Positions 1,246-51,729 of a DNA stretch of 64,000 bases are shown piece after piece (the stretch's first letter is position 1; each line of letters begins with the position of its first letter). The DNA comes from Escherichia phage ECML-117. The notes under the pieces are model-generated. The model had not been told where the DNA came from. It worked only from the letters and a program-made list of their open reading frames with translations, and made no database searches. The translations under genes and the position numbers were made by a program. The stretch lies in the sequence record JX128258. One strand, written 5' to 3'.

Positions 1246-1694
1246 TGGGTAAACGCCTTATCGCCGCTGGTTGGGCCATACCGAAGTGGGGTCATCGTGC
1301 GCATTACTTTGACGAAGGAGAAGTGCAAAGCCTTTGTGGTCGCGCAACGTATTTCGGTGATGAGCGCGTCAGCGGCGATTATATCGACTCGCTTTTAGGC
1401 AAAGGTGATTGCAAGAAGTGTCAGAATATATTAAGGGATATTCTTACGCAAAAAGGATTGCTTGAGCTTGATGAATCGGAAGAAGTAATTGAACTTAAGC
1501 TGGAAGCCAATCACCTTATTAATATGTTCAAGAACTATTACGCAACTAATATGCGCTCAAAAATGAGCGAGGAAGTAATAGAAAAGGTGTTCACCTACAA
1601 TCCGCTAAGGATGAATAAAACCAAATTGAAGAAGTTTAATATAATGTTAAGGAAAGAATTTAAAAGGCTAGGGGTGAAGAATTTTATATTTTAA
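1242..1694 (+). CDS. hypothetical protein (150 aa) with N-terminal Cys cluster
   Basis: Start overlaps previous stop (ATGATGG); Cys at C32/C57/C60 suggests a small metal-binding domain; AT-rich C-terminal half. Confidence 0.5.
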   Translation: MMGKRLIAAGWAIPKWGHRAHYFDEGEVQSLCGRATYFGDERVSGDYIDSLLGKGDCKKCQNILRDILTQKGLLELDESEEVIELKLEANHLINMFKNYYATNMRSKMSEEVIEKVFTYNPLRMNKTKLKKFNIMLRKEFKRLGVKNFIF

Positions 1695-1711
1695 TAGTGA
1701 TTAATGTTAAG

Positions 1712-1735
1712 AGGGCCGATTGGCCCTTTTTGTTT
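1712..1735 (+). terminator. rho-independent terminator
   Basis: AGGGCC-GATT-GGCCCT hairpin followed by TTTTTGTTTG, directly after the 1242..1694 stop. Confidence 0.6.
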
Positions 1736-2019
1736 GCCCGTGGGGTGTGAGTCTTTATTATCGGATAAAGCGATTGATTTGTGTAAATCTATTAGAGGAT
1801 GGTGGGGAATGAGGATTGTGACGTGATTTGTGTGTCTTGAATATGTGTGCGGATTTGGAAGAATATTGTACTGTGGTGCTGTGGGATTGGAGAGGGAATC
1901 ACTAGGTTTTGGGGCGTGTACCGTGGTGTGTGGGCCTGTAGGCTGCGCCGTCTCTGGGATTGCCGCCTGAAATTTAAAAGGAGATATAGTTAGCTGGCTA
2001 ACCTTACGTATAGAATTTA

Positions 2020-4133: not shown

Positions 4134-4161
4134 ATTATAATATAGTGTAGAAAAAAGTAAA
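4134..4161 (-). promoter_or_regulatory. sigma70-like promoter (leftward)
   Basis: Minus strand: TTTACT (-35) - 16 nt - TATAAT (-10); -35 embedded in CGAAAAAGTGCTTTACT, the same 17-mer that precedes the promoter at 4604. Confidence 0.5.
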
Positions 4162-4205
4162 GCACTTTTTCGATAAAAATGCGATAAATTATTTTATCTT
4201 TTTTC

Positions 4206-4233
4206 TTTACTTCTTCGTACACTCGCGTATACT
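4206..4233 (+). promoter_or_regulatory. sigma70-like promoter (rightward)
   Basis: TTTACT - 16 nt - TATACT upstream of gene 4290; shares CTTTACTTCTTCGTACACT with the promoter at 4604. Confidence 0.5.
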
Positions 4234-4289
4234 TGTTTATATCGAGACGGGCGATGGCCCTTCCTTCTACTAGCATCGGGAGCTTTATT

Positions 4290-4592
4290 ATGACTACTTT
4301 AATCTCTTCCATCCTTACTTACGACGAAGACCGTTTAACCGTTCGCTCTCTTATCGCCGCCGTTAACGCGGAACTAGAATCTAGCGCCATTAAGGTCCGC
4401 GCGGTCGCCTTCATCGGCCTTTCCTTCGACGATATGAAGTACGCCGAACGTAGCGCCATCCGCTTCGCGAAGACCGACGACGAAGCCGTTACCCTTATCG
4501 AGACGGTTACGCCGCGCGGCGAAGCGTTAATTATCGTCGAGTATATCGACGTAGAAGGCGATAAATCTTATAAACATTTTATCGCAGAATGA
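4290..4592 (+). CDS. small acidic protein (100 aa), early gene
   Basis: ATG 4290 with GGGAG RBS; net acidic; N-terminus MTTLISSI resembles the next gene's MITLAAI. Confidence 0.55.
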   Translation: MTTLISSILTYDEDRLTVRSLIAAVNAELESSAIKVRAVAFIGLSFDDMKYAERSAIRFAKTDDEAVTLIETVTPRGEALIIVEYIDVEGDKSYKHFIAE

Positions 4593-4603
4593 CGAAAAAG
4601 TGC

Positions 4604-4632
4604 TTTACTTCTTCGTACACTAAGACTATAAT
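4604..4632 (+). promoter_or_regulatory. sigma70-like promoter (rightward)
   Basis: TTTACT - 17 nt - TATAAT; preceded by CGAAAAAGTG upstream element. Confidence 0.55.
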
Positions 4633-5457: not shown

Positions 5458-5733
5458 GGCGCAAAACTTTCCCTTCGTTCCGAACTAAAACGAGAAATAT
5501 GCGGACCCTTCGCCCGAAAATAGTACGCATGCGAAATTACCGACATCTAGAATAATCCCCGCCGATATTATCCTACACGCAATCATTAGCCTTCGAATCA
5601 TTATGCTTCATATTATTATGCATCGAATCATTCGCTTTCGAATTGTAACGCTGGAAACTGTAACGGCGATTGATTATTGCGTTCGTGTGGTTTTTATGGC
5701 ATGGGTCTTTTGGTGCGTTTTGGTACTTGATGA

Positions 5734-5845
5734 AATTTGCAGTACACTAATCAAAATACGACACATTTGGTCCACTAACTTTTCAAAGAAAAAGTCCTAG
5801 ACAGTACCGTACTATTTTGTGCCCACAGTAAATTTGCAGTACACT
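5734..5845 (+). repeat. direct repeat, 2 x 16-mer AAATTTGCAGTACACT
   Basis: Copies at 5734-5748 and 5830-5845; core ATTTGCA shared with the 11-mer array at 2513-3407. Confidence 0.6.
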
Positions 5846-7321: not shown

Positions 7322-7402
7322 AATACACCTCACTTGTTAACGTATAATGAGTATAACTTAATAGCGCATAAAGTAAAGGCGCTTTTCAGCGCCTTGAGTG
7401 AA

Positions 7403-9798: not shown

Positions 9799-10140
9799 TT
9801 AATTTCTTTTGAGAGGAATATGACGGTGGCTGCCATTATCTGGTTTAATAATGAGCATAAAAACGATTAGAAAGATGATGGCTGATATACTTAATTCAAT
9901 CAGCGCGGCCTGAGATATGGATTGATCTTCGTGATACTGCTTTTGCATTTCTGCTTTCTTCTGAGCGCAAACTTCAGGCGATATATAATCACCTTTTGAG
10001 TTGCCATAATAAATCTCGCCATTCTCAGAAATAAGTCTGCCGCAAATATCCGTATCGGCCTTTGCGCTTGACATCATAATAACAGTGCCGATGATAGCAG
10101 CAATTGTCCAGATTAGCAGTTGTGATAAAGTATTGTTCAT
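9799..10140 (-). CDS. small membrane/periplasmic protein (113 aa)
   Basis: Start at internal ATG with AGAGG RBS; N-terminal signal/TM, two Cys in the central domain, C-terminal TM. Confidence 0.5.
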   Translation of the reverse strand: MNNTLSQLLIWTIAAIIGTVIMMSSAKADTDICGRLISENGEIYYGNSKGDYISPEVCAQKKAEMQKQYHEDQSISQAALIELSISAIIFLIVFMLIIKPDNGSHRHIPLKRN

Positions 10141-10336
10141 GATAACCTCTTTAAATTCCCTTCCCATATCGGGAAGGGCGAATGTTATTTTACGCGAAAG
10201 AATAGGCGCGTGCCACACAGCGAGTCCCAACGGCCCTCACCATCCCATATCGACCCAACACCAGCGGTGATTGGGCCAGCAGAATTGGCGGCATTGGCCC
10301 AGGCGAGACGTTTCAACTTCCAACTGCACCAACGAT

Positions 10337-10570: not shown

Positions 10571-10781
10571 TTTCTTTCCACTCCACAAATGTGCTGCCAC
10601 TTGTTTCTCTATTTAGCAGGTATCTGCCGCGCATTCCATGAAGGCTGAATTCAACCGTCGATGGATTAGATTTTGAAAGCCACATCGCTTGACCGTCGAA
10701 TGGTCCGCCAACGCATGTGTATTTGGCTTTTGGCTCACTCCTTTTGGGCCGTTTTGCCCGCTCTTTGATTGATAGTCTCAT
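10560..10781 (-). CDS. hypothetical protein (73 aa)
   Basis: ORF-track ORF in a tightly packed leftward operon. Confidence 0.4.
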   Translation of the reverse strand: MRLSIKERAKRPKRSEPKAKYTCVGGPFDGQAMWLSKSNPSTVEFSLHGMRGRYLLNRETSGSTFVEWKENGK

Positions 10782-10996
10782 CAGTCTTCACCTTGAGATT
10801 CAAGACAAGTAAGAACAAGCCATGTCATCGGAAGAATCAAAACCAGAGAAATAAGGGACCAGATGGACCAGCACAAGATGACAGACTTGAATGTGTGAAC
10901 GTCGCCAAACGCAGCAGTGAAACAAAATCCCATCACGAAAGCAAGCGCGGTGGAGTGGTTATCAATGGCTTTGATGGCACGGTCGATGAGTTTCAT
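10781..10996 (-). CDS. small membrane protein (71 aa), holin-like candidate
   Basis: Two predicted hydrophobic helices and a charged C-terminus. Confidence 0.4.
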   Translation of the reverse strand: MKLIDRAIKAIDNHSTALAFVMGFCFTAAFGDVHTFKSVILCWSIWSLISLVLILPMTWLVLTCLESQGED

Positions 10997-18049: not shown

Positions 18050-18330
18050 ACGCGTATAATGACGTATCATCCGTATCAAGTAAGTAGTTGTTTTCAAAAG
18101 AATCTTACGGATGATACGGATGATACGCGTTGCCGCGATACTTTATAGGAATTCAAATAAATTAATTTAAAATTATATATCTAATTTAATTTTATTTTTT
18201 TATAAACTCTTATATATGAAAAGTATCCGTATCATCCGTATCATCCGTAGCACACCAGTGATAGCGCGGCTTATACACCGATACGGATAAAAAATACGCC
18301 TCATCTTATCCGTATCATCCGTATCACACT
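18050..18330 (+). promoter_or_regulatory. iteron/AT-rich regulatory element, copy B
   Basis: CGTATAATGACGTA at 18053-18066; 45-nt block at 18102-18148 (about 44/47 identity to 2104-2150); CCGTATCATCCGTATC arrays at 18063-18077, 18225-18248 and 18309-18326; AT-rich core 18146-18225. Confidence 0.6.
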
Positions 18331-18435: not shown

Positions 18436-19854
18436 ATGCGAATGCAAACGGCACGCGAAATTGACAAAAATGGATTCTTGACGATTGTGGGTTGTCCCAT
18501 TTCGTCATTTGGCATTTTTGATTATTCTGCAGGTCAGGTTGGACTTGATGGTGATCCGAATCGCATCGTAAAAGTTTATCGCCCAGAGTCAGCGGTGAAA
18601 GACCCCGAAGCGATAGATTCATTCAAAAATATCCCTTTCATCGACAATCACGAAATGCTTTCTGGATTCGAAGGTGATGAGGATAACACAGCACCCGAAG
18701 AGTATGGCGTTGATGGCGTTCTAACTGGCAATGTTTATTATGACAAGCCATGGATGCGCGGCGACCTTAAAGTTTTTAGCCGTCGTCTGAAGAAGGCCAT
18801 CGACTCTGGAAAGGTTGACTTGTCTTTGGGCTATGACTGTGAATTCATCATACAGTCTGGAGAGTTTGACGGGCAGCCGTATGAAGTGGTACAGACAACT
18901 CTTCGCGGCAACCACATTGCTCTCGTGGACGTTGGTCGAGTACCAGGTGCACGGGTGCTGGATGGTCGTTGCTTTGACCATCTTTGTTTGACGACTGTAA
19001 CACCATCCAACGAGGATTTAGACATGCCAAAACCGTTAAAAGGTAAAGCGCGTGATAATGCTGTTGAACAGCTGAAATCACTGATCCCTGCGCTCGAACA
19101 ATTTCTGAATGAAGAGAGCACCGAAGCTGCTCATCAGGACGAAGTTGAAGTGAAAGCAGAAGAGAAGGATTCAACCGAAGAACGTGAAGAAGTGATGGTT
19201 GATCCAGAAGTCAAAGCAGAAGCTGAAGAGACTCCAGAAGGTGAAGAGAAGTTTGAATTTGAAACTGAATCTCACGCTGGCGGCGAGCTTCCGCAACTGA
19301 TCAGCCAAATCGAAGCACTTATTGCAAAACTGAAAGGTGGCGCGGTAGGTGATGAAGAAGAAGTTGAAGCCGAAGTCAAAGACGAAGAAGTTGAAGTCAA
19401 GGCTGAAGATGTATCACCTTGCGACAAAGCTGAAGATGTGGTTAGCGGCCTGCAAAACAGCAACGTAAAGGGGGCTTCGGTCGAAAAAGATGACAAACCG
19501 ACAAAAGCGGCGAAAGCGTCGCCAGGTCCAGCAAAAGGGGAACACTCAATGGCATCTGATTCAGCAGTTGCTGCTTTCTACGCTGATTCTGCTCGTAAGA
19601 ATAGCCTCTACCAGCGCCTGTCTAAAGTTGTTGGTGCCTTTGATCATGCAACTATGGACTCCAAGTCCGTAGCGAAATATGGCGCTAAAAAGTTAGGCTT
19701 GAAGTGCGTTGATGGTGCTGAGTTTGACGTGGTGGATAATTATCTGCGCGGCGTTGAACACGGTCAAAAACAGCGTGTAGTCGCAAAACAAAAGGCCGCT
19801 GCGGATTCTGCAGCAACTGACGAAGCGTTTGAAGCTTGGTTGAAAGGGGAATAA
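18436..19854 (+). CDS. prohead protease/scaffold-like protein with acidic C-terminal region
   Basis: 472 aa; Glu-rich low-complexity C-terminal half typical of scaffolds; sits before the major capsid gene. Confidence 0.45.
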   Translation: MRMQTAREIDKNGFLTIVGCPISSFGIFDYSAGQVGLDGDPNRIVKVYRPESAVKDPEAIDSFKNIPFIDNHEMLSGFEGDEDNTAPEEYGVDGVLTGNVYYDKPWMRGDLKVFSRRLKKAIDSGKVDLSLGYDCEFIIQSGEFDGQPYEVVQTTLRGNHIALVDVGRVPGARVLDGRCFDHLCLTTVTPSNEDLDMPKPLKGKARDNAVEQLKSLIPALEQFLNEESTEAAHQDEVEVKAEEKDSTEEREEVMVDPEVKAEAEETPEGEEKFEFETESHAGGELPQLISQIEALIAKLKGGAVGDEEEVEAEVKDEEVEVKAEDVSPCDKAEDVVSGLQNSNVKGASVEKDDKPTKAAKASPGPAKGEHSMASDSAVAAFYADSARKNSLYQRLSKVVGAFDHATMDSKSVAKYGAKKLGLKCVDGAEFDVVDNYLRGVEHGQKQRVVAKQKAAADSAATDEAFEAWLKGE

Positions 19855-37550: not shown

Positions 37551-39335
37551 ATGCCAACACTTATTAACAGACCTTTCGCGCAAAGCGGTGATGTATCCGT
37601 GGTGCCGGATGCAAGCCCAAGCGGTTATGTGAACTTCCAGCGCGGCTACACTCCTGACTATGCGCTTGCGCTGGAGGCCGGAAACGTCGCCGCGAAAGCT
37701 GTTGAGCGCGAATCGATGAACTGGTTGCTGAATTTGATTACAGACAACCTTATGTTTATTCAAGATCATGGCGCTCAACAATATTTCTCTTCTGACTTGA
37801 AGCCGGATGGATACCCGAAAAACGCCATTGTTGTCAGCAACTCTGGAACGCCTTCAGCACCTGAGTGGCGCATCTTTCAAAGCGTGGTCGACGGCAACAC
37901 AAGCGCCGTACCAGCTAACGGAGAAACGGAATCTTGGCAGGAATTAACACTGCCCAGCGAAGCGCGAAAATACATTCCTATGCCTGCTGGCGGCGATGCG
38001 CAAAACCCGTACTTCGTTCGCGGATTGATTTCAAGCTTTGTTGACTTCGATAATATTACGACTTCCACAACTATCGTCATTCAATCCGATGCCGTCGCCG
38101 CTCTTTGCTCTAACATCCCGAATGCGGTTGGCGCAACGAAGGTTGCAGGTCGACTGCAGGTCTGCGCTTGGCAGGTCAATGCGCAGACCTTTGCTTTGCA
38201 GCAATATACATCAATGAATGGCTATTTGTTTACTCGCTCTTATACTTCTGGTGCTTGGAGTGCTTGGATTCAAAATGCCACTGTTCAAGACGTGCAAATC
38301 GGAACTCCAAACCTTGCATCTGGTAAAGGCGCGCAAGATATAATCCTCACCGTTCCAGCAGGGTATTCATGGCCGCCTTCTGCGGGTAGTCGTTTGACCA
38401 TCGTCAATGACGTGACTACTACCGGACCTGTCACCGTGACCATTGGTGTAAACAAAGTTGCCGTTCTTGGATTCGACGGCGGCGAGTTACCAGCTGGCGC
38501 TATCGTAGGCTTGTTGCCATTCACCATCATTTATGACGGCGCTGTTTGGCGTCTCCTTCAGGCATTTGGCGCGGCGCAAATCGGCGTTGATGCTACTGAG
38601 CCGCAACAGTTTGTTACAAAGCGCCAACTCGATGCTTTGGCTGCGAAGTTGATCACTATGGGTGACGTATTCGAAGTCGGTGAGACTCGATTCCTTACCA
38701 ACGGAACCAACCCAAATACTAAACTGGGCGCTTACGGTCAGGTATGGACACGACTGCCTGATAACATGGTCATTAGAACATCTGGAACGTCGCGGAACGG
38801 TCTTGCCACTGGCGGCGCGGACTCTGTCACCCTTACCGCTGCCATGCTCCCTCTTCACAACCACAGCGTAAACATAACTACGCGTCAGAGCGGCCCATGG
38901 TCCAATACTACTGGAGATGCTGGAAATCACAACCACACAGGCGATACCAGTCAGAACGGCGCTCACTCTCATGGTATGGATGCAGCAGGAAATCATTACC
39001 ATGACAGCGGTTGGGGAGAGGCGTATGCGGACCAAGCGCGTTACGGAGTTTATGACGGTACTCACAACAACCTTGGGAGTGCAAGGTCTGATTATGATAA
39101 CTACAAATACAACACTTCAACTAATGGCAACCACGTCCATAATATTCAATCTTCTGGATCACACACTCATGGTTTGAATATAAATTACGCTGGCAATCAC
39201 AGCCATGGCTATACCCTTCCCGCTCACACTCACGATGTGGTCGGTAATACTGGCGATGCAGGGCAGTCGGTGCCAACGGCTGTTGCGACTTTGCCGCGAT
39301 ACGTTGTTTTGAATGGCTGGTACAGAAGCGCATAA
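37551..39335 (+). CDS. tail fibre protein with C-terminal HxH metal-binding repeats
   Basis: 594 aa from ATG 37551 (GAGGAA RBS); C-terminal GNHNHTGD, AHSHG, GNHYHD, GNHVHN, SHTHG, GNHSHG, AHTHD motifs as in receptor-binding fibre tips. Confidence 0.6.
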   Translation: MPTLINRPFAQSGDVSVVPDASPSGYVNFQRGYTPDYALALEAGNVAAKAVERESMNWLLNLITDNLMFIQDHGAQQYFSSDLKPDGYPKNAIVVSNSGTPSAPEWRIFQSVVDGNTSAVPANGETESWQELTLPSEARKYIPMPAGGDAQNPYFVRGLISSFVDFDNITTSTTIVIQSDAVAALCSNIPNAVGATKVAGRLQVCAWQVNAQTFALQQYTSMNGYLFTRSYTSGAWSAWIQNATVQDVQIGTPNLASGKGAQDIILTVPAGYSWPPSAGSRLTIVNDVTTTGPVTVTIGVNKVAVLGFDGGELPAGAIVGLLPFTIIYDGAVWRLLQAFGAAQIGVDATEPQQFVTKRQLDALAAKLITMGDVFEVGETRFLTNGTNPNTKLGAYGQVWTRLPDNMVIRTSGTSRNGLATGGADSVTLTAAMLPLHNHSVNITTRQSGPWSNTTGDAGNHNHTGDTSQNGAHSHGMDAAGNHYHDSGWGEAYADQARYGVYDGTHNNLGSARSDYDNYKYNTSTNGNHVHNIQSSGSHTHGLNINYAGNHSHGYTLPAHTHDVVGNTGDAGQSVPTAVATLPRYVVLNGWYRSA

Positions 39336-39343
39336 GGTGATTT

Positions 39344-39988
39344 ATGATTAATGCAAACGTAATATCTAAAGGGACCGGATGCAGCATGGATGTTGCAGAG
39401 AAATGGGTGGACCCTTTCAAGCAGGCTTGTGAGCACTACGGAATCAAAAGCAAGAATGCCATCGCGGCATTCCTTGCAAATGTAGGAGTAGAGACAGGCA
39501 GCTTGAAGACATTTGTGGAAAATCTCAATTACTCCGCTCAAGGTCTTGCCAATACATGGCCTAGTCGTTACAGCGTCAACGGTCGCTCTGGAAGCGCCCC
39601 GAACTCATTGGCCCTGTCTATTGCCCGTAAACCTGTGGAAATCGCCAATAATACATATGCAAACCGCATGGGCAACGGTTCAGTAGCATCTGGCGACGGT
39701 TGGAAGTACCGTGGCCGTGGTGCCATTCAGCTGACTGGTAAGGCGAACTATGCGGAATATACGCGCCAATCAGGTTATGATGCATTGAACAATCCTGATA
39801 TTCTGACTGAACCAAAATACATCGCTGACAGCGCGGCATGGTTCTTTAAGAATAGCGGCTGTATTCCTCTTGCGGATGCAGGAAATTTTGATTCAACCGT
39901 TAAGCGGATTAACGGGGCCGCGCCGAACGCAGCAAACCACGGTGAGTTGCGAAGAAAGCGTTACAAAGATGCACTAGCAGTTATGTAA
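39344..39988 (+). CDS. endolysin, glycoside hydrolase family 19-like
   Basis: AAFLANVGVETGSL and YRGRGAIQLTGKANY match GH19 lysozyme/chitinase catalytic-region signatures. Confidence 0.75.
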   Translation: MINANVISKGTGCSMDVAEKWVDPFKQACEHYGIKSKNAIAAFLANVGVETGSLKTFVENLNYSAQGLANTWPSRYSVNGRSGSAPNSLALSIARKPVEIANNTYANRMGNGSVASGDGWKYRGRGAIQLTGKANYAEYTRQSGYDALNNPDILTEPKYIADSAAWFFKNSGCIPLADAGNFDSTVKRINGAAPNAANHGELRRKRYKDALAVM

Positions 39989-40020
39989 GAAAAAGGCCCA
40001 TATGGGCCTTTGTTTATTTT
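39988..40020. terminator. bidirectional rho-independent terminator
   Basis: AGGCCCATATGGGCCT palindrome flanked by A-run upstream and TTTGTTTATTTT downstream, between convergent genes. Confidence 0.65.
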
Positions 40021-40244
40021 ACGGCTTCAACTTGGACGGGCGGAGCGGAACTTGTATCAATGTCTGGTAAGTCGAAATAATACCCCGCCATACCAATTGC
40101 ACCCACAATCGCGGCCCGTGCCACCTTGTTGCTAATTGACTCCCCAATAAGCTTTACCAACAGGGACAAGATTTGAGACGTCAAAGCCTTTTTCAGCCTT
40201 TTGTTTTCTTCCAAATCTTTCTGCATAACTACCACCCATGTCAA
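40014..40244 (-). CDS. small membrane protein (76 aa)
   Basis: One hydrophobic segment (AAIVGAIGMAGYYF); low-GC codon usage. Confidence 0.4.
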   Translation of the reverse strand: MTWVVVMQKDLEENKRLKKALTSQILSLLVKLIGESISNKVARAAIVGAIGMAGYYFDLPDIDTSSAPPVQVEAVK

Positions 40245-40783
40245 CGCACTTCCTGTGTCTTAACATTACCTGAAGCATCTCTCAAGGGCAGTGGATAGTA
40301 GGCCATTTGGTAGTCTGATACGCCTTCAATGTGATAAAACACGATTACGTCTTTGCTGTTGATGAGCATGTTAACGACATCTGATTTATCTTCTGGAGTG
40401 AGTATTAGTGCGCCGCCTGTCCTGCTGTCTACTGCAACAGGGTATGTCTTGTCGACAAGGCCGCTGTCCAATGTATTATACCTGACAACGATTTCAGGGG
40501 CATCAACTTTTGCCATTGACATTCCGAACACAAACGACACGACTTGTCGACCGCGATCATTCATTACGCACATCTTTTCTTTGTCAAATCTTTCTTTTAT
40601 TACGTCGTATTTGTTCCAGCAGAACTCAAAGGATTGCCCATTGTTGAAATATCTCGTCAAAACTTTCGCAATTCCATTCGGCGGAGTAAACATATTTTCA
40701 GCCGATGCAGTCTTGGTGAAGAATATAACTGTCAGCATGGCCATGATGATGATCAAAACAATCTTTAATTTGTTAGCTTTCAT
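40241..40783 (-). CDS. secreted/periplasmic protein (180 aa)
   Basis: N-terminal signal peptide (KLKIVLIIIMAMLTVIFFTKTASA); AT-rich codon usage distinct from neighbours. Confidence 0.5.
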   Translation of the reverse strand: MKANKLKIVLIIIMAMLTVIFFTKTASAENMFTPPNGIAKVLTRYFNNGQSFEFCWNKYDVIKERFDKEKMCVMNDRGRQVVSFVFGMSMAKVDAPEIVVRYNTLDSGLVDKTYPVAVDSRTGGALILTPEDKSDVVNMLINSKDVIVFYHIEGVSDYQMAYYPLPLRDASGNVKTQEVR

Positions 40784-40844
40784 TATAATTCACCTTTTGA
40801 TTATGAATATTAATAGTATAGGCTTAAGGTTTTGAAAGTAAATA

Positions 40845-40884
40845 CGCCGAAAGTAAATAAAAGAAAAGCCGGAAATTTCCGGCT
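40845..40884 (-). terminator. rho-independent terminator (minus strand)
   Basis: AGCCGGAAATTTCCGGCT hairpin followed on the minus strand by TTTTCTTTTATTT; ends the leftward replication-gene transcript. Confidence 0.55.
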
Positions 40885-40957
40885 TATGTATACACTGTAT
40901 ATTAAATTCTATAAAACGGCGCGATAGATTATACGCAACAATTATTTATCCAGTGTG

Positions 40958-41932
40958 TTAAAAATACTCCATATCGGTAATATCACGGAAGCACTTATAC
41001 AAGGCAGAGCGCGGCACGTCAACGATGCCAAAGTTAAAGAATTTATATGTCAGATATTTGTTGCGATAGTTCTCGCGATTCTCCCAAAGCATTTTTCTCT
41101 CTGCCATAGGCATTGAACCAGCGGAGACGCGGAAAGGAATCATTTCGCCTTTCTCATCAACATATTTTGGATTGACAACCACAAATGATCCAAGGTATCC
41201 TTTCGCAACTAAGCCTTCAGCCTCTTTCGAACGCTTAGTGCGACCCAACTCATCAATGAATGCCTCGTTGTTGTTCTCCATCATCTCAACGAAGTCTATG
41301 ATCAATCCTTCTTCATCGGTCCACGGCTTGTCCTTCCACACATCACGTGACTTTGGCGTCGCGCGGCCATGCTTGTATTTGCCCGTCCAAGACTTGCCAT
41401 ACAAGCCTTCATAGCCAAGCTGGTCTGCTTCGATTTGCATTGCCGCGTACTGTTCCATATTTTCGATGTTTCGATATTCGAGAGCGCGAAGGAATGGGCG
41501 TCGACCATGGTTGATGAGGTGCTGATTGACTTCAGCAACTCTAGCGCGATAGTTTGCATAACGCTTTTCAAAAGGCAAATCAGGGTCGCTGAAGTCATCA
41601 AACACCCACCATGTAAAGTTAGTGATTGCATCAGTATTCATGCAGGCTGTATAGGCTTGCTGCATGACGTTCTTGTCGTTCGGATTGCCGTCAATAAGCT
41701 CTCCATCAAGGCCATGAATCAATTCACCCAAAAAGAGGAACTCTTTTTTGATTTGAATGTTGCGCAGAGCCATGCCGGACGTGCCCATTGGCAAGTTGTC
41801 ATACGCCATCGCGCGTATGCCATCGACCTTGAAGGACAACCCGCAAGGCAGCGGCACATCTTCGCCGCGCTCGATAATTTGCTTACGCTGGCAACCCTTC
41901 ATTGGTTTTAATGCTTTGATTTCCCCTGCCAT
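40958..41932 (-). CDS. ATP-dependent nucleic-acid ligase
   Basis: 324 aa with nucleotidyltransferase motif I KVDGIR (KxDG). Confidence 0.55.
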   Translation of the reverse strand: MAGEIKALKPMKGCQRKQIIERGEDVPLPCGLSFKVDGIRAMAYDNLPMGTSGMALRNIQIKKEFLFLGELIHGLDGELIDGNPNDKNVMQQAYTACMNTDAITNFTWWVFDDFSDPDLPFEKRYANYRARVAEVNQHLINHGRRPFLRALEYRNIENMEQYAAMQIEADQLGYEGLYGKSWTGKYKHGRATPKSRDVWKDKPWTDEEGLIIDFVEMMENNNEAFIDELGRTKRSKEAEGLVAKGYLGSFVVVNPKYVDEKGEMIPFRVSAGSMPMAERKMLWENRENYRNKYLTYKFFNFGIVDVPRSALYKCFRDITDMEYF

Positions 41933-42525
41933 TATTCGCGACCCTCATTCATTACTTGTTCCATTGCGTAGGCATAAGCCTGATCAGTCGATTTGATGAA
42001 CGTGCCGTTGTACATCACCCCTTTACGGTCCTTGATGTCTTCATAGGCGGCTTGAGCGCAATCAGAAAGTCGAAGTCCATAATCATGCGCTACGCCGGAA
42101 AGATAATCCACAGCGGCCATGATGGTGACATCAATATCCATGCTCTGATTTTTAGCAATGGCGTCGCCAAGTCGTCCGAGCGTCTTTGCCAAGCGAAGGA
42201 TAAAGGAATGAGGGTGAGCGCCTTTGTCAGCGCAACCGCCGCCGTTAATGTCTTCGATTTTTGCGCCATTTTGCGCGGCAAGAATAGTTAACACAACAAG
42301 GCAATCGCCGATGTCGTCCTTGATGGCGGCTTGTAAATCACAGATGGCCTGCTCTGTATATCCGATTTCAGGGTCAAAGAACACAAGGTCATGTAATTGA
42401 TCAACGTGGTCGGTCAACTCCCCAAACTCGCTAATAAGCTTCGGGTATTGGTCTTTAAGGCCGCAACCTTTGATGATGTTACGGTCAGAAGCCCACTGGC
42501 GAATGTTTGCATAAATCTGGTTCAT
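41932..42525 (-). CDS. MazG-like nucleotide pyrophosphohydrolase
   Basis: 197 aa all-alpha with EFGELTDH and acidic metal-binding motifs. Confidence 0.5.
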   Translation of the reverse strand: MNQIYANIRQWASDRNIIKGCGLKDQYPKLISEFGELTDHVDQLHDLVFFDPEIGYTEQAICDLQAAIKDDIGDCLVVLTILAAQNGAKIEDINGGGCADKGAHPHSFILRLAKTLGRLGDAIAKNQSMDIDVTIMAAVDYLSGVAHDYGLRLSDCAQAAYEDIKDRKGVMYNGTFIKSTDQAYAYAMEQVMNEGRE

Positions 42526-43040
42526 TTATTTTCCTTTGATGCGTTGAATTGGTCGATTTTAATTTTAGCCTGATTATAAGTATCAATCAAGCTATTAACT
42601 TTCTCTTTTAATCGGTTCGTTTCTGCGGCGAACTGAACAAGAAATCGGACATCCTCTTCTGATAGTCCACAGTTTCCTTCTGGGATAGAGAGGCGTCCAG
42701 TGGTCGCAGAGTCGGGCACACTCCTGAGTAATTCACGGGAGCAGCTGAGTTGCTCGCGCAGCTTGATATTCCCAGACTTGTAACGAGCAATAGTGTCATC
42801 AGCAACCAGTTGCGCTTCCTGGCGACCCTTCTCATATGCCGATGCCGATTCAACCTGTAAAGATGCAATTTGCTCTTCGAGTGCATTTATCTTGTCCTTA
42901 CGCTCATTAAGCGATGTCAGATATTGATTATCCTTGGCCAGTGATGCGTTGGTTTGCTGAAGGTCTTCAACGTATGATCCAGCGGCGAACGCGCCAACAA
43001 GGGCCAGAATTTTCAGAAGCGGCACAATTCTTTCTATCAT
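42522..43040 (-). CDS. Rz-like inner-membrane spanin
   Basis: 172 aa; N-terminal TM (IVPLLKILALVGAFAAGSY) followed by coiled-coil-like periplasmic domain; embedded lipoprotein ORF in another frame. Confidence 0.55.
   Translation of the reverse strand: MIERIVPLLKILALVGAFAAGSYVEDLQQTNASLAKDNQYLTSLNERKDKINALEEQIASLQVESASAYEKGRQEAQLVADDTIARYKSGNIKLREQLSCSRELLRSVPDSATTGRLSIPEGNCGLSEEDVRFLVQFAAETNRLKEKVNSLIDTYNQAKIKIDQFNASKENK
42608..42835 (-). CDS. Rz1-like outer-membrane lipoprotein spanin (embedded)
   Basis: Entirely inside 42522..43040 in a different frame; signal MRRVARKRNWLLMTLLLVTSLGISS-C with lipobox, Pro-containing mature part with a second Cys. Confidence 0.5.
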   Translation of the reverse strand: MRRVARKRNWLLMTLLLVTSLGISSCASNSAAPVNYSGVCPTLRPLDASLSQKETVDYQKRMSDFLFSSPQKRTD

Positions 43041-44835: not shown

Positions 44836-44909
44836 TTTGTATTCCTCTGTTTCGTTTCGATGAAGTAATTATGACTCATCTTCCCTGACAAGTCAAATTA
44901 TTTTTGATA

Positions 44910-51664: not shown

Positions 51665-51729
51665 TTATTTATCCTTTTTGGACTTCGTTTCGATGAGATA
51701 AATATAACTCATCGAAACGCACAAGTAAA

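Follow-up and report, generated by a model that had tools for sequence, protein, structure and literature searches.

Two published reports describe the closest relatives of the locus considered here. PA1-LRP, encoded by ORF13 of the Pantoea phage PA1 (Kylevirus), was introduced as a 'lysis-related protein' (LRP): in E. coli it lowered optical density and growth by 13-20%, increased the leakage of beta-galactosidase and resulted in 24.7% dead cells, and a Lys-LRP fusion of PA1-LRP with the endolysin reduced the optical density by ~69-75%; TMHMM predicted no transmembrane domain (TMD) and a two-hybrid assay with the endolysin was negative (PMC11538084). In the Pbunavirus 14-1 the transcription unit TU021, which contains gp48 alone, was singled out as possibly moron-like (PMC10914365). 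We analyzed 64,000 nucleotides (nt) of Escherichia phage ECML-117 (JX128258; 'the window' denotes this whole stretch), in which a two-gene unit on the minus strand, located between the DNA ligase and the endolysin genes, codes for a secreted protein of 180 amino acids (aa) and a small protein. The small gene is a further member of the LRP family, which has already been described though barely characterized. New is the recognition that PA1-LRP, 14-1 gp48 and the Wifcevirus genes are one syntenic locus with a conserved secreted partner; this links the hypothetical E. coli pair with PA1-LRP and with the mapped 14-1 gp48 unit, which stand unconnected in PMC11538084 and PMC10914365. New, too, is the correction of its reading as compositionally distinct or moron-like cargo. 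Our tentative reading is that the unit serves lysis as an accessory module, conserved in the PB1-like supergroup and transcribed autonomously; we give this reading a little less than an even chance.

The window belongs to a Wifcevirus, a myophage that infects E. coli and Shigella and has a genome of ~68-72 kb. Over bases 39300-41000 it shares 98.5% identity with ECP_WGS_SA1 and 91-98% with 26 further records, among them WFH, WFC, Mansfield, FEC19 and Bas98-101. Two minus-strand open reading frames (ORFs) are present where the original prediction had placed them, at 40241..40783 (180 aa) and 40014..40244 (76 aa from a TTG). For the small gene the ATG at 40226 (70 aa) following the sequence GGGTGG is the more likely start and is used in Mansfield and WFH; the TTG at 40244 overlaps the stop codon of the upstream gene as TTGA. 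Both genes are 'hypothetical' in every Wifcevirus record and are under purifying selection (dN/dS 0.02-0.14; 0-0.14 for the small gene). Upstream of them, on the same strand, are the genes for DNA ligase and a MazG-like pyrophosphatase as well as those for the embedded i-/o-spanins; the convergent GH19 endolysin gene on the downstream side is the end of the late structural gene block. The locus contains the following features:

39344..39988, plus strand: GH19 endolysin gene (Pfam Glyco_hydro_19; phrog_181 endolysin, E 3.6e-70)
39992..40011, both strands: bidirectional intrinsic terminator of the endolysin gene (+) and the small gene (-), 8-pair stem with a T-run on each strand
40014..40226, minus strand: small LRP-family gene, 70 aa, ATG at 40226 (phrog_5165, E 1.7e-7)
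40232..40237, minus strand: Shine-Dalgarno sequence GGGTGG of the small gene, 5 nt before the ATG at 40226; ribosome-binding site in Mansfield
40241..40783, minus strand: gene of the 180-aa secreted protein; signal peptide residues 1-28 at 40700-40783, mature protein of 152 aa
40791..40796, minus strand: Shine-Dalgarno sequence AAGGTG of the secreted-protein gene, 7 nt before the ATG at 40783; ribosome-binding site in Mansfield
40815..40842, minus strand: sigma-70-type promoter TTTACT-N16-TATACT of the two-gene unit (consensus scan; conserved hexamers)
40866..40885, minus strand: intrinsic terminator of the ligase/MazG/spanin transcript (-12.7 kcal/mol, z -4.1; annotated in WFH and Mansfield)

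The small protein consists of a basic N-terminus, two helices and an acidic, Pro-rich tail. Its membership in the LRP family follows from the phrog_5165 match listed above, from tblastn matches in Kyle (E 7e-11) and PA1 (E 2e-4) and from a BLASTP match in MTx (E 2e-9), and it contains the family motif LxxLL(V/I)(R/K)L(I/V)GE(S/T)(V/I)K...R...(L/I)(I/V)G; orthologues are found in Kyle, PA1 (PA1-LRP), MTx, XcP1 and 14-1/JG024. The PA1 orthologue (positions 5550-5771 of the PA1 locus L005) is 43% identical, and the published primers match its start MVRRR... The two proteins have the motif LLVRLIGE(S/T)(V/I)KD...R...(L/I)(I/V)G...GYY and a two-helix prediction in common, and each gene lies behind the gene of a homologous secreted protein and faces a convergent GH19 endolysin gene. 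They differ at the N-terminus, which is MVRRRRR in PA1-LRP and less basic in the Wifcevirus protein (MQKDLEENKRLKK). The upstream secreted protein and the wider family are not mentioned in the report on PA1-LRP (PMC11538084). In an AlphaFold2 (AF2) model of low confidence (pLDDT 64) the small protein forms helices at residues 2-30 and 34-51 and a disordered tail; two helices, no beta structure and a size of ~8 kDa agree with the Phyre2 result for PA1-LRP. In a search of the whole phage collection, JG024 gp48 (14-1 ORF47) was matched by the Wifcevirus small gene with 38% identity (tblastn, E 9e-5).

The arrangement recurs far beyond the Wifceviruses. Both proteins are present in 27 of 27 Wifcevirus records. 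The small-gene family was found in 330 phage records, and its position at the end of the replication-side (ligase) cluster, always convergent to the endolysin gene, is kept in Wifce-, Kyle-, Myosmar-, Carpasina- and Pbunavirus and in metagenomic relatives. The order ligase, secreted protein, small protein and convergent endolysin was found in the Pantoea phages Kyle and PA1 (34-37% identity for the secreted and 43% for the small protein), is colinear in the Serratia Myosmarvirus MTx (20% and 31% identity) and occurs also in the Xanthomonas Carpasinavirus XcP1 and in the metagenomic contigs L011, L017, L018, L020 and L021. The secreted protein accompanies the small gene in all these groups except Pbunavirus, where the small gene stands alone and a 280-nt gap replaces its partner; it is therefore dispensable in principle. 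The endolysin facing the small gene is of the GH19 type in the five named genera and in L017 and L018, an M15-type peptidase (assigned from sequence) in L011, a Peptidase_M15_3 protein in L021 and a lambda-R-like transglycosylase (also assigned from sequence) in L020. Because these four types differ among relatives, the locus is not tied to a single endolysin chemistry. In deep homologue searches both families proved to be tiny and restricted to phages (9 clusters per family in a set of 5.8 billion sequences); all secreted-protein homologues with inspected context are located in phage or phage-like loci, none is annotated, and no remote homologue has an informative Pfam domain. Since the arrangement recurs across genera, the pair is an inherited core feature of the PB1-like supergroup and not recent cargo.

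As had been claimed, the unit is autonomous; it runs from its own promoter to its own terminator. Both proposed terminator hairpins fold far better than shuffled controls (z ~-4). The one at 39992-40011, with folding energies of -13.2 (minus strand) and -14.7 kcal/mol (plus strand), is annotated on both strands in Mansfield; the other, at 40866-40885(-), insulates the two genes from the upstream ligase transcript. The promoter is one of six matches of the pattern TTTACT-N16-18-TATAHT in the window, where 0.03 are expected by chance. All of them, at 4134-4161(-), 4206-4233(+), 4604-4632(+), 7350-7377(-), 40815-40842(-) and 51701-51729(-), are intergenic and upstream of genes, and three (4134-4632) are grouped near the left end of the window. 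The hexamers of the unit's promoter are invariant across divergent Wifceviruses, with a variable spacer, and TTTACT-N17-TATAAT precedes the orthologous pair in Kyle and PA1. Judged by position and GC content (0.512 versus 0.596 and 0.572 in the flanks), gp48 of TU021 (ORF47 of FM897211) is the LRP-family gene of 14-1, so that independent transcription of an orthologue has been shown experimentally. This gene, nearly identical to JG024 gp48, follows the ligase gene and faces the endolysin gene in convergent orientation. It has a transcription start and a terminator of its own, both mapped, and a slightly low GC content; unlike the two-gene unit of the Wifceviruses, the Pbunavirus unit is monocistronic.

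Close to one copy of this promoter class we noticed a repeated 12-mer, CATCGAAACGAA, at 44851-44862(-), 51684-51695(-) and 51710-51721(+) (three matches versus 0.5 expected). Two minus-strand promoter-like sequences of the replication cluster have it nearby: in one it follows shortly after the -10 at 44836-44909, and at the other, the TTTACT promoter at 51701-51729, it lies inside or beside the promoter and has an inverted partner. It may be an operator or an element of the 5' untranslated region.

The original prediction had described both products as targeted to the envelope, one as a signal-peptide protein and the other as a membrane protein. For the 180-aa protein this is confirmed by a textbook Sec signal, from which export to the envelope is predicted: the n-region MKANKLK is followed by the h-region IVLIIIMAMLTVIFF (Kyte-Doolittle 3.27 over 15 aa) and the c-region TKTASA|EN with Ala at -3 and -1, and there is no lipobox Cys. 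The AxA site and two Cys residues are retained in all homologues; C55 and C72 recur in the proteins of Wifce-, Kyle- and Myosmarvirus and in the metagenomic ones, a pair that fits an oxidizing compartment and would form a disulfide bond. The small protein, in contrast, has no credible TMD. Its best 19-aa Kyte-Doolittle value of 1.23 is below the usual 1.6, and a crude Hessa insertion energy amounts to +7.4 kcal/mol (+3 to +9 across orthologues), compared with -1.1 for the signal peptide, -3.0 for a genuine TMD and +4.0 for the i-spanin TMD of the same window. It may nevertheless insert into the membrane in a marginal way, similar to a signal-arrest-release (SAR) sequence.

AF2 modelling of the mature secreted protein resulted in one confident model (pLDDT 89.5, pTM 0.84); the other four reached a pLDDT of 60-73. 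The fold is mostly beta with one helix and indicates no catalytic family, and the protein can at most be regarded as a predicted periplasmic binding or adaptor domain. A Foldseek search against the PDB gave no significant match, and in BFVD only uncharacterized phage proteins were matched (MTx fold match, E 1.6e-7). The model is at most weakly similar to the IalB fold (PDB 3dtd) and to the N-terminal domain of a flagellar T-ring protein (8z5n), at a sequence identity of 4-8%. There is no Pfam match to the IalB family PF06776 at E <= 0.1, and no function is transferable from IalB because its own mechanism is unknown. For either protein Pfam, NCBIfam, PADLOC and PHROGs revealed no function, the sole match being phrog_5165 (unknown function), and sequence-profile searches of both proteins against the PDB found nothing. 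The 180-aa protein was also considered as an i-spanin and rejected, as it is beta-rich with a cleavable signal and does not consist of a TMD plus a coiled coil.

In an accessory lysis module these parts could act together as follows. The host RNA polymerase would transcribe the unit from the sigma-70-type phage promoter, independently of the ligase and endolysin transcripts. The LRP-family product, predicted to be a helix-turn-helix whose second helix is rich in Gly/Ala and weakly hydrophobic, would associate peripherally or marginally with the cytoplasmic membrane and destabilize it, and this would either help the signal-less endolysin to reach the murein or tune the timing. After Sec export and cleavage behind ASA, the 180-aa product would reside in the periplasm as a disulfide-stabilized, beta-rich binding domain and might modulate this process from across the membrane. 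That lysis is the native function, that the small protein associates with the membrane and that the two products interact in any way are points of inference. The lysis role is favoured by the orthology with PA1-LRP, the constant convergence with the endolysin gene, the spanins in the same minus-strand cluster, the signal-less endolysin and the lack of an annotated holin, and in our judgment its probability is somewhat below one half. Neither a signal or SAR sequence nor a hydrophobic segment was found in the window's endolysin, which consequently needs a membrane lesion to reach the murein. Expression of lysis factors from a host-type promoter is plausible because Wifcevirus development is reportedly complete in ~10 min (PMC7048862; see also PMC11990801).

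The i- and o-spanins are of the embedded Rz/Rz1 type (42522..43040(-) with 42608-42886(-)) and are located upstream of the MazG gene. The corresponding site in Kyle, PA1, MTx and Pbunavirus is taken by the gene of a TMD-containing protein of 201 aa whose N-terminus is rich in glycine (phrog_1544, 'PA1-LVP'). With the spanins assigned to 42522..43040 and no lipobox in the small protein, a spanin or lipoprotein function was ruled out for the latter.

No holin is annotated in any Wifcevirus record, and the small protein is probably not a classical holin. Like lambda S and phrog_1356 it is small and adjacent to an endolysin, and its orthologue damages membranes; unlike them it contains no segment reaching the TMD threshold, carries invariant charges within its helices and has its charged region at the N-terminus instead of the C-terminus. 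No holin family of Pfam, NCBIfam or PHROGs was matched. In the contig L018 a 68-aa DUF7940/phrog_1356 holin (1580-1786(-), E 2.3e-17) directly follows the GH19 endolysin gene and the LRP-like gene is kept, and LRP is hence not simply 'the holin'. A 'holin' label found in Pbunavirus (JJ01 ORF42, Epa13 gp34) was discarded: in the JJ01 paper it goes back to PHASTER, and in the present RefSeq entry of Epa13 the gene is hypothetical. A search of the window for the membrane proteins of relatives detected no PA1-LVP, no DUF7940/phrog_1356 holin of the L018 kind and no 'GFSWTT' protein. The last of these, a protein with two TMDs and the motif RNGATRTIP.GFSWTT, is encoded between the ligase and secreted-protein genes in XcP1 (L006, 2709-3152; unannotated, the region being marked as a promoter), L011 (2634-3068) and L021 (3655-3999), and is absent from Wifcevirus; L011 has an additional lipoprotein in the ligase-endolysin slot. 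With these additions in XcP1, L011 and L021 the interval between ligase and endolysin is filled with envelope-targeted products.

Several observations weigh against a role in lysis. The data on PA1-LRP are suggestive but weak evidence for it, as the experiments consist of 24-h over-expression, covalent fusions and a negative two-hybrid assay with the endolysin. The original prediction had named a requirement for lysis as the result that would speak against its exclusion or surface-modification proposal; the permeabilization, killing and enhancement of the endolysin by PA1-LRP approach such a requirement but were obtained by over-expression only. The small protein is less hydrophobic than expected of a holin, with G28, E29 and R37 invariant within its 'hydrophobic' stretch, and the metagenomic relative L018 keeps an LRP-like gene in addition to a recognizable holin. 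Better candidates for a classical holin exist in the window near the terminase gene: the 71-aa product of 10781..10996(-) has two strong TMDs (CPT_Mansfield_019, hypothetical), and the ORF at 9799..10230(-) of at most 143 aa combines a signal or TMD at the N-terminus with two Cys and a TMD at the C-terminus; it is specific for Wifcevirus and split by a frameshift in several relatives. The fold of the secreted protein offers no functional clue, and the small gene could have stayed next to the endolysin gene through inherited synteny, with no link in function. Finally, the promoter class also serves genes of the terminal-repeat region and of the replication cluster, which suggests early or middle expression and would fit exclusion or host takeover at least as well as lysis. 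So far the pair is nothing out of the ordinary, a set of two conserved genes whose function is unproven.

The main alternative is superinfection exclusion or envelope protection in the manner of T4 Imm plus Sp, with early expression from a host-type promoter, which we regard as rather unlikely but as a serious rival. The T4 proteins are a small inner-membrane protein and a periplasmic protein expressed from host-type promoters; imm and sp do not form an operon and are conserved among the T-even phages. The logic in common with our pair is a small inner-membrane-associated protein combined with a signal-peptide periplasmic protein, host-type promoters and a virulent myovirus, but sequence, profile and fold (BFVD and PDB fold searches) are not similar, and the small Wifcevirus protein is TMD-less, unlike Imm. 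Under this explanation the periplasmic protein might block an incoming tail lysozyme or a receptor/O-antigen step and the small protein the entry of DNA at the inner membrane. In its favour are the unit's own sigma-70-type promoter, of a class with further copies at 4134-4632 and 7350-7377 before small genes close to the window's left end, and one product that is periplasmic and has a binding-domain-like beta fold with no catalytic signature; conservation in a virulent lineage is compatible with it, and the tables examined for vB_Eco4M-7 and ECML-117 do not list the products among lysate or virion proteins. Neither protein, however, resembles an exclusion or defence family (weak unknown-function matches in PHROGs, none in PADLOC, NCBIfam or Pfam), and Pbunavirus retains the small gene only. 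Moreover, PA1-LRP damages cells and aids the endolysin, which is not envelope protection (PMC11538084). If the pair does mediate exclusion, it is relevant to the design of phage cocktails.

To return to the accessory lysis module, a more far-reaching version would make LRP a new effector or timer of lysis throughout the supergroup: a TMD-less amphipathic helical hairpin breaching or gating the cytoplasmic membrane, which in the enterobacterial and xanthomonad branches would be controlled from the periplasm by the secreted beta-sandwich partner. We consider this quite unlikely. If true, it would represent a two-compartment lysis-control device unrelated to known holin and antiholin families, might contribute to the unusually short latent period reported for the Wifceviruses and would extend to Pbunaviruses used in therapy. 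Pbunaviruses are widely used in Pseudomonas phage therapy, and neither for them nor for the related Wifceviruses do the genome records and literature examined document a holin or lysis timer with a proven function. Should the pair control lysis, a tractable system is available, since Bas98-101 grow on engineered E. coli K-12 (PMC11990801).

Very doubtful is a pair of lysis inhibitors of the antiholin type, comparable to RI and RIII of T4, in which the two proteins would delay lysis by binding a holin, one on each side of the membrane. T4 RI is periplasmic and RIII is a small cytoplasmic two-helix protein, an architecture similar to one exported protein plus one of ~70 aa with two helices and no TMD; the analogy comes from T4 biology, and homology to RI or RIII was not detectable. 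The LRP gene of L018 stands alongside a canonical holin, and the small proteins with genuine TMDs that other parts of the window encode are possible target holins for such a pair. Yet the over-expression of PA1-LRP promotes cell death and leakage, the opposite effect (PMC11538084), and the very short latent period of Wifceviruses argues against a prominent inhibition of lysis.

The proposal of compositionally distinct cargo had been based on a noticeably lower GC content and a different codon usage, and neither held up in a gene-wise comparison of GC, GC at third codon positions (GC3) and codon-usage log-likelihood with the 83 genes of the window. The gene of the 180-aa protein has a GC content of 0.420 (z -1.0, rank 15 of 83), a GC3 of 0.481 (z +0.14) and a codon-usage z of +0.09. 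The corresponding values of the small gene are a GC of 0.455 (z -0.07) and z values of +0.53 for GC3 and -1.28 for codon usage, the gene being very short. The whole 871-nt unit has a GC content of 0.416 (z -1.5, 8th percentile), which was traced to the low GC content of the 174-nt intergenic spacer (0.30) and of the codons for the signal peptide (0.37). The retention of the small gene in the same slot across five genera and several metagenomic relatives contradicts the cargo claim and also a moron-like origin in 14-1 (PMC10914365). A recently acquired foreign cassette, the framing of the original prediction that was also suggested for 14-1 gp48 (PMC10914365), would explain the unit's own promoter and terminator, its position at the 8th GC percentile and the GC of the 14-1 orthologue (51% versus 57-60% in the flanks), but has hardly any probability left and is effectively excluded by the small gene's occurrence, with 25-50% identity, in one and the same slot of at least five genera and of several metagenomic lineages, a pattern implying vertical inheritance, by genome-typical GC3 and codon usage, by a search in which no bacterial homologues were found (12 clusters of the secreted protein among 1.84 billion representatives) and by a presence that is not patchy, with both genes found in each of the 27 Wifcevirus records and synteny retained in other genera.

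Two further signals overlap the secreted-protein gene or the region upstream of it. The antisense ORF at 40353..40835(+), 160 aa, was judged spurious, because the substitutions fit the minus-strand frame and the ORF is annotated in no record. A match to the enterobacterial small RNA STnc430 of Rfam at 40782-40896(+), over the promoter/terminator spacer, scored 27.4 bits against a gathering threshold of 47 (E 0.13) and is most likely due to chance.

At a distance from the unit, a 9-nt repeat, ATCCGTATC, occurs in three clusters at 18106-18127 (inverted), 18225-18249 and 18308-18326. The clusters are located in and just before an AT-rich gap of 287 nt ahead of the gene at 18436, which starts the long plus-strand block ending in the tail-fibre and endolysin genes, and the repeats may be a regulatory or protein-binding array.

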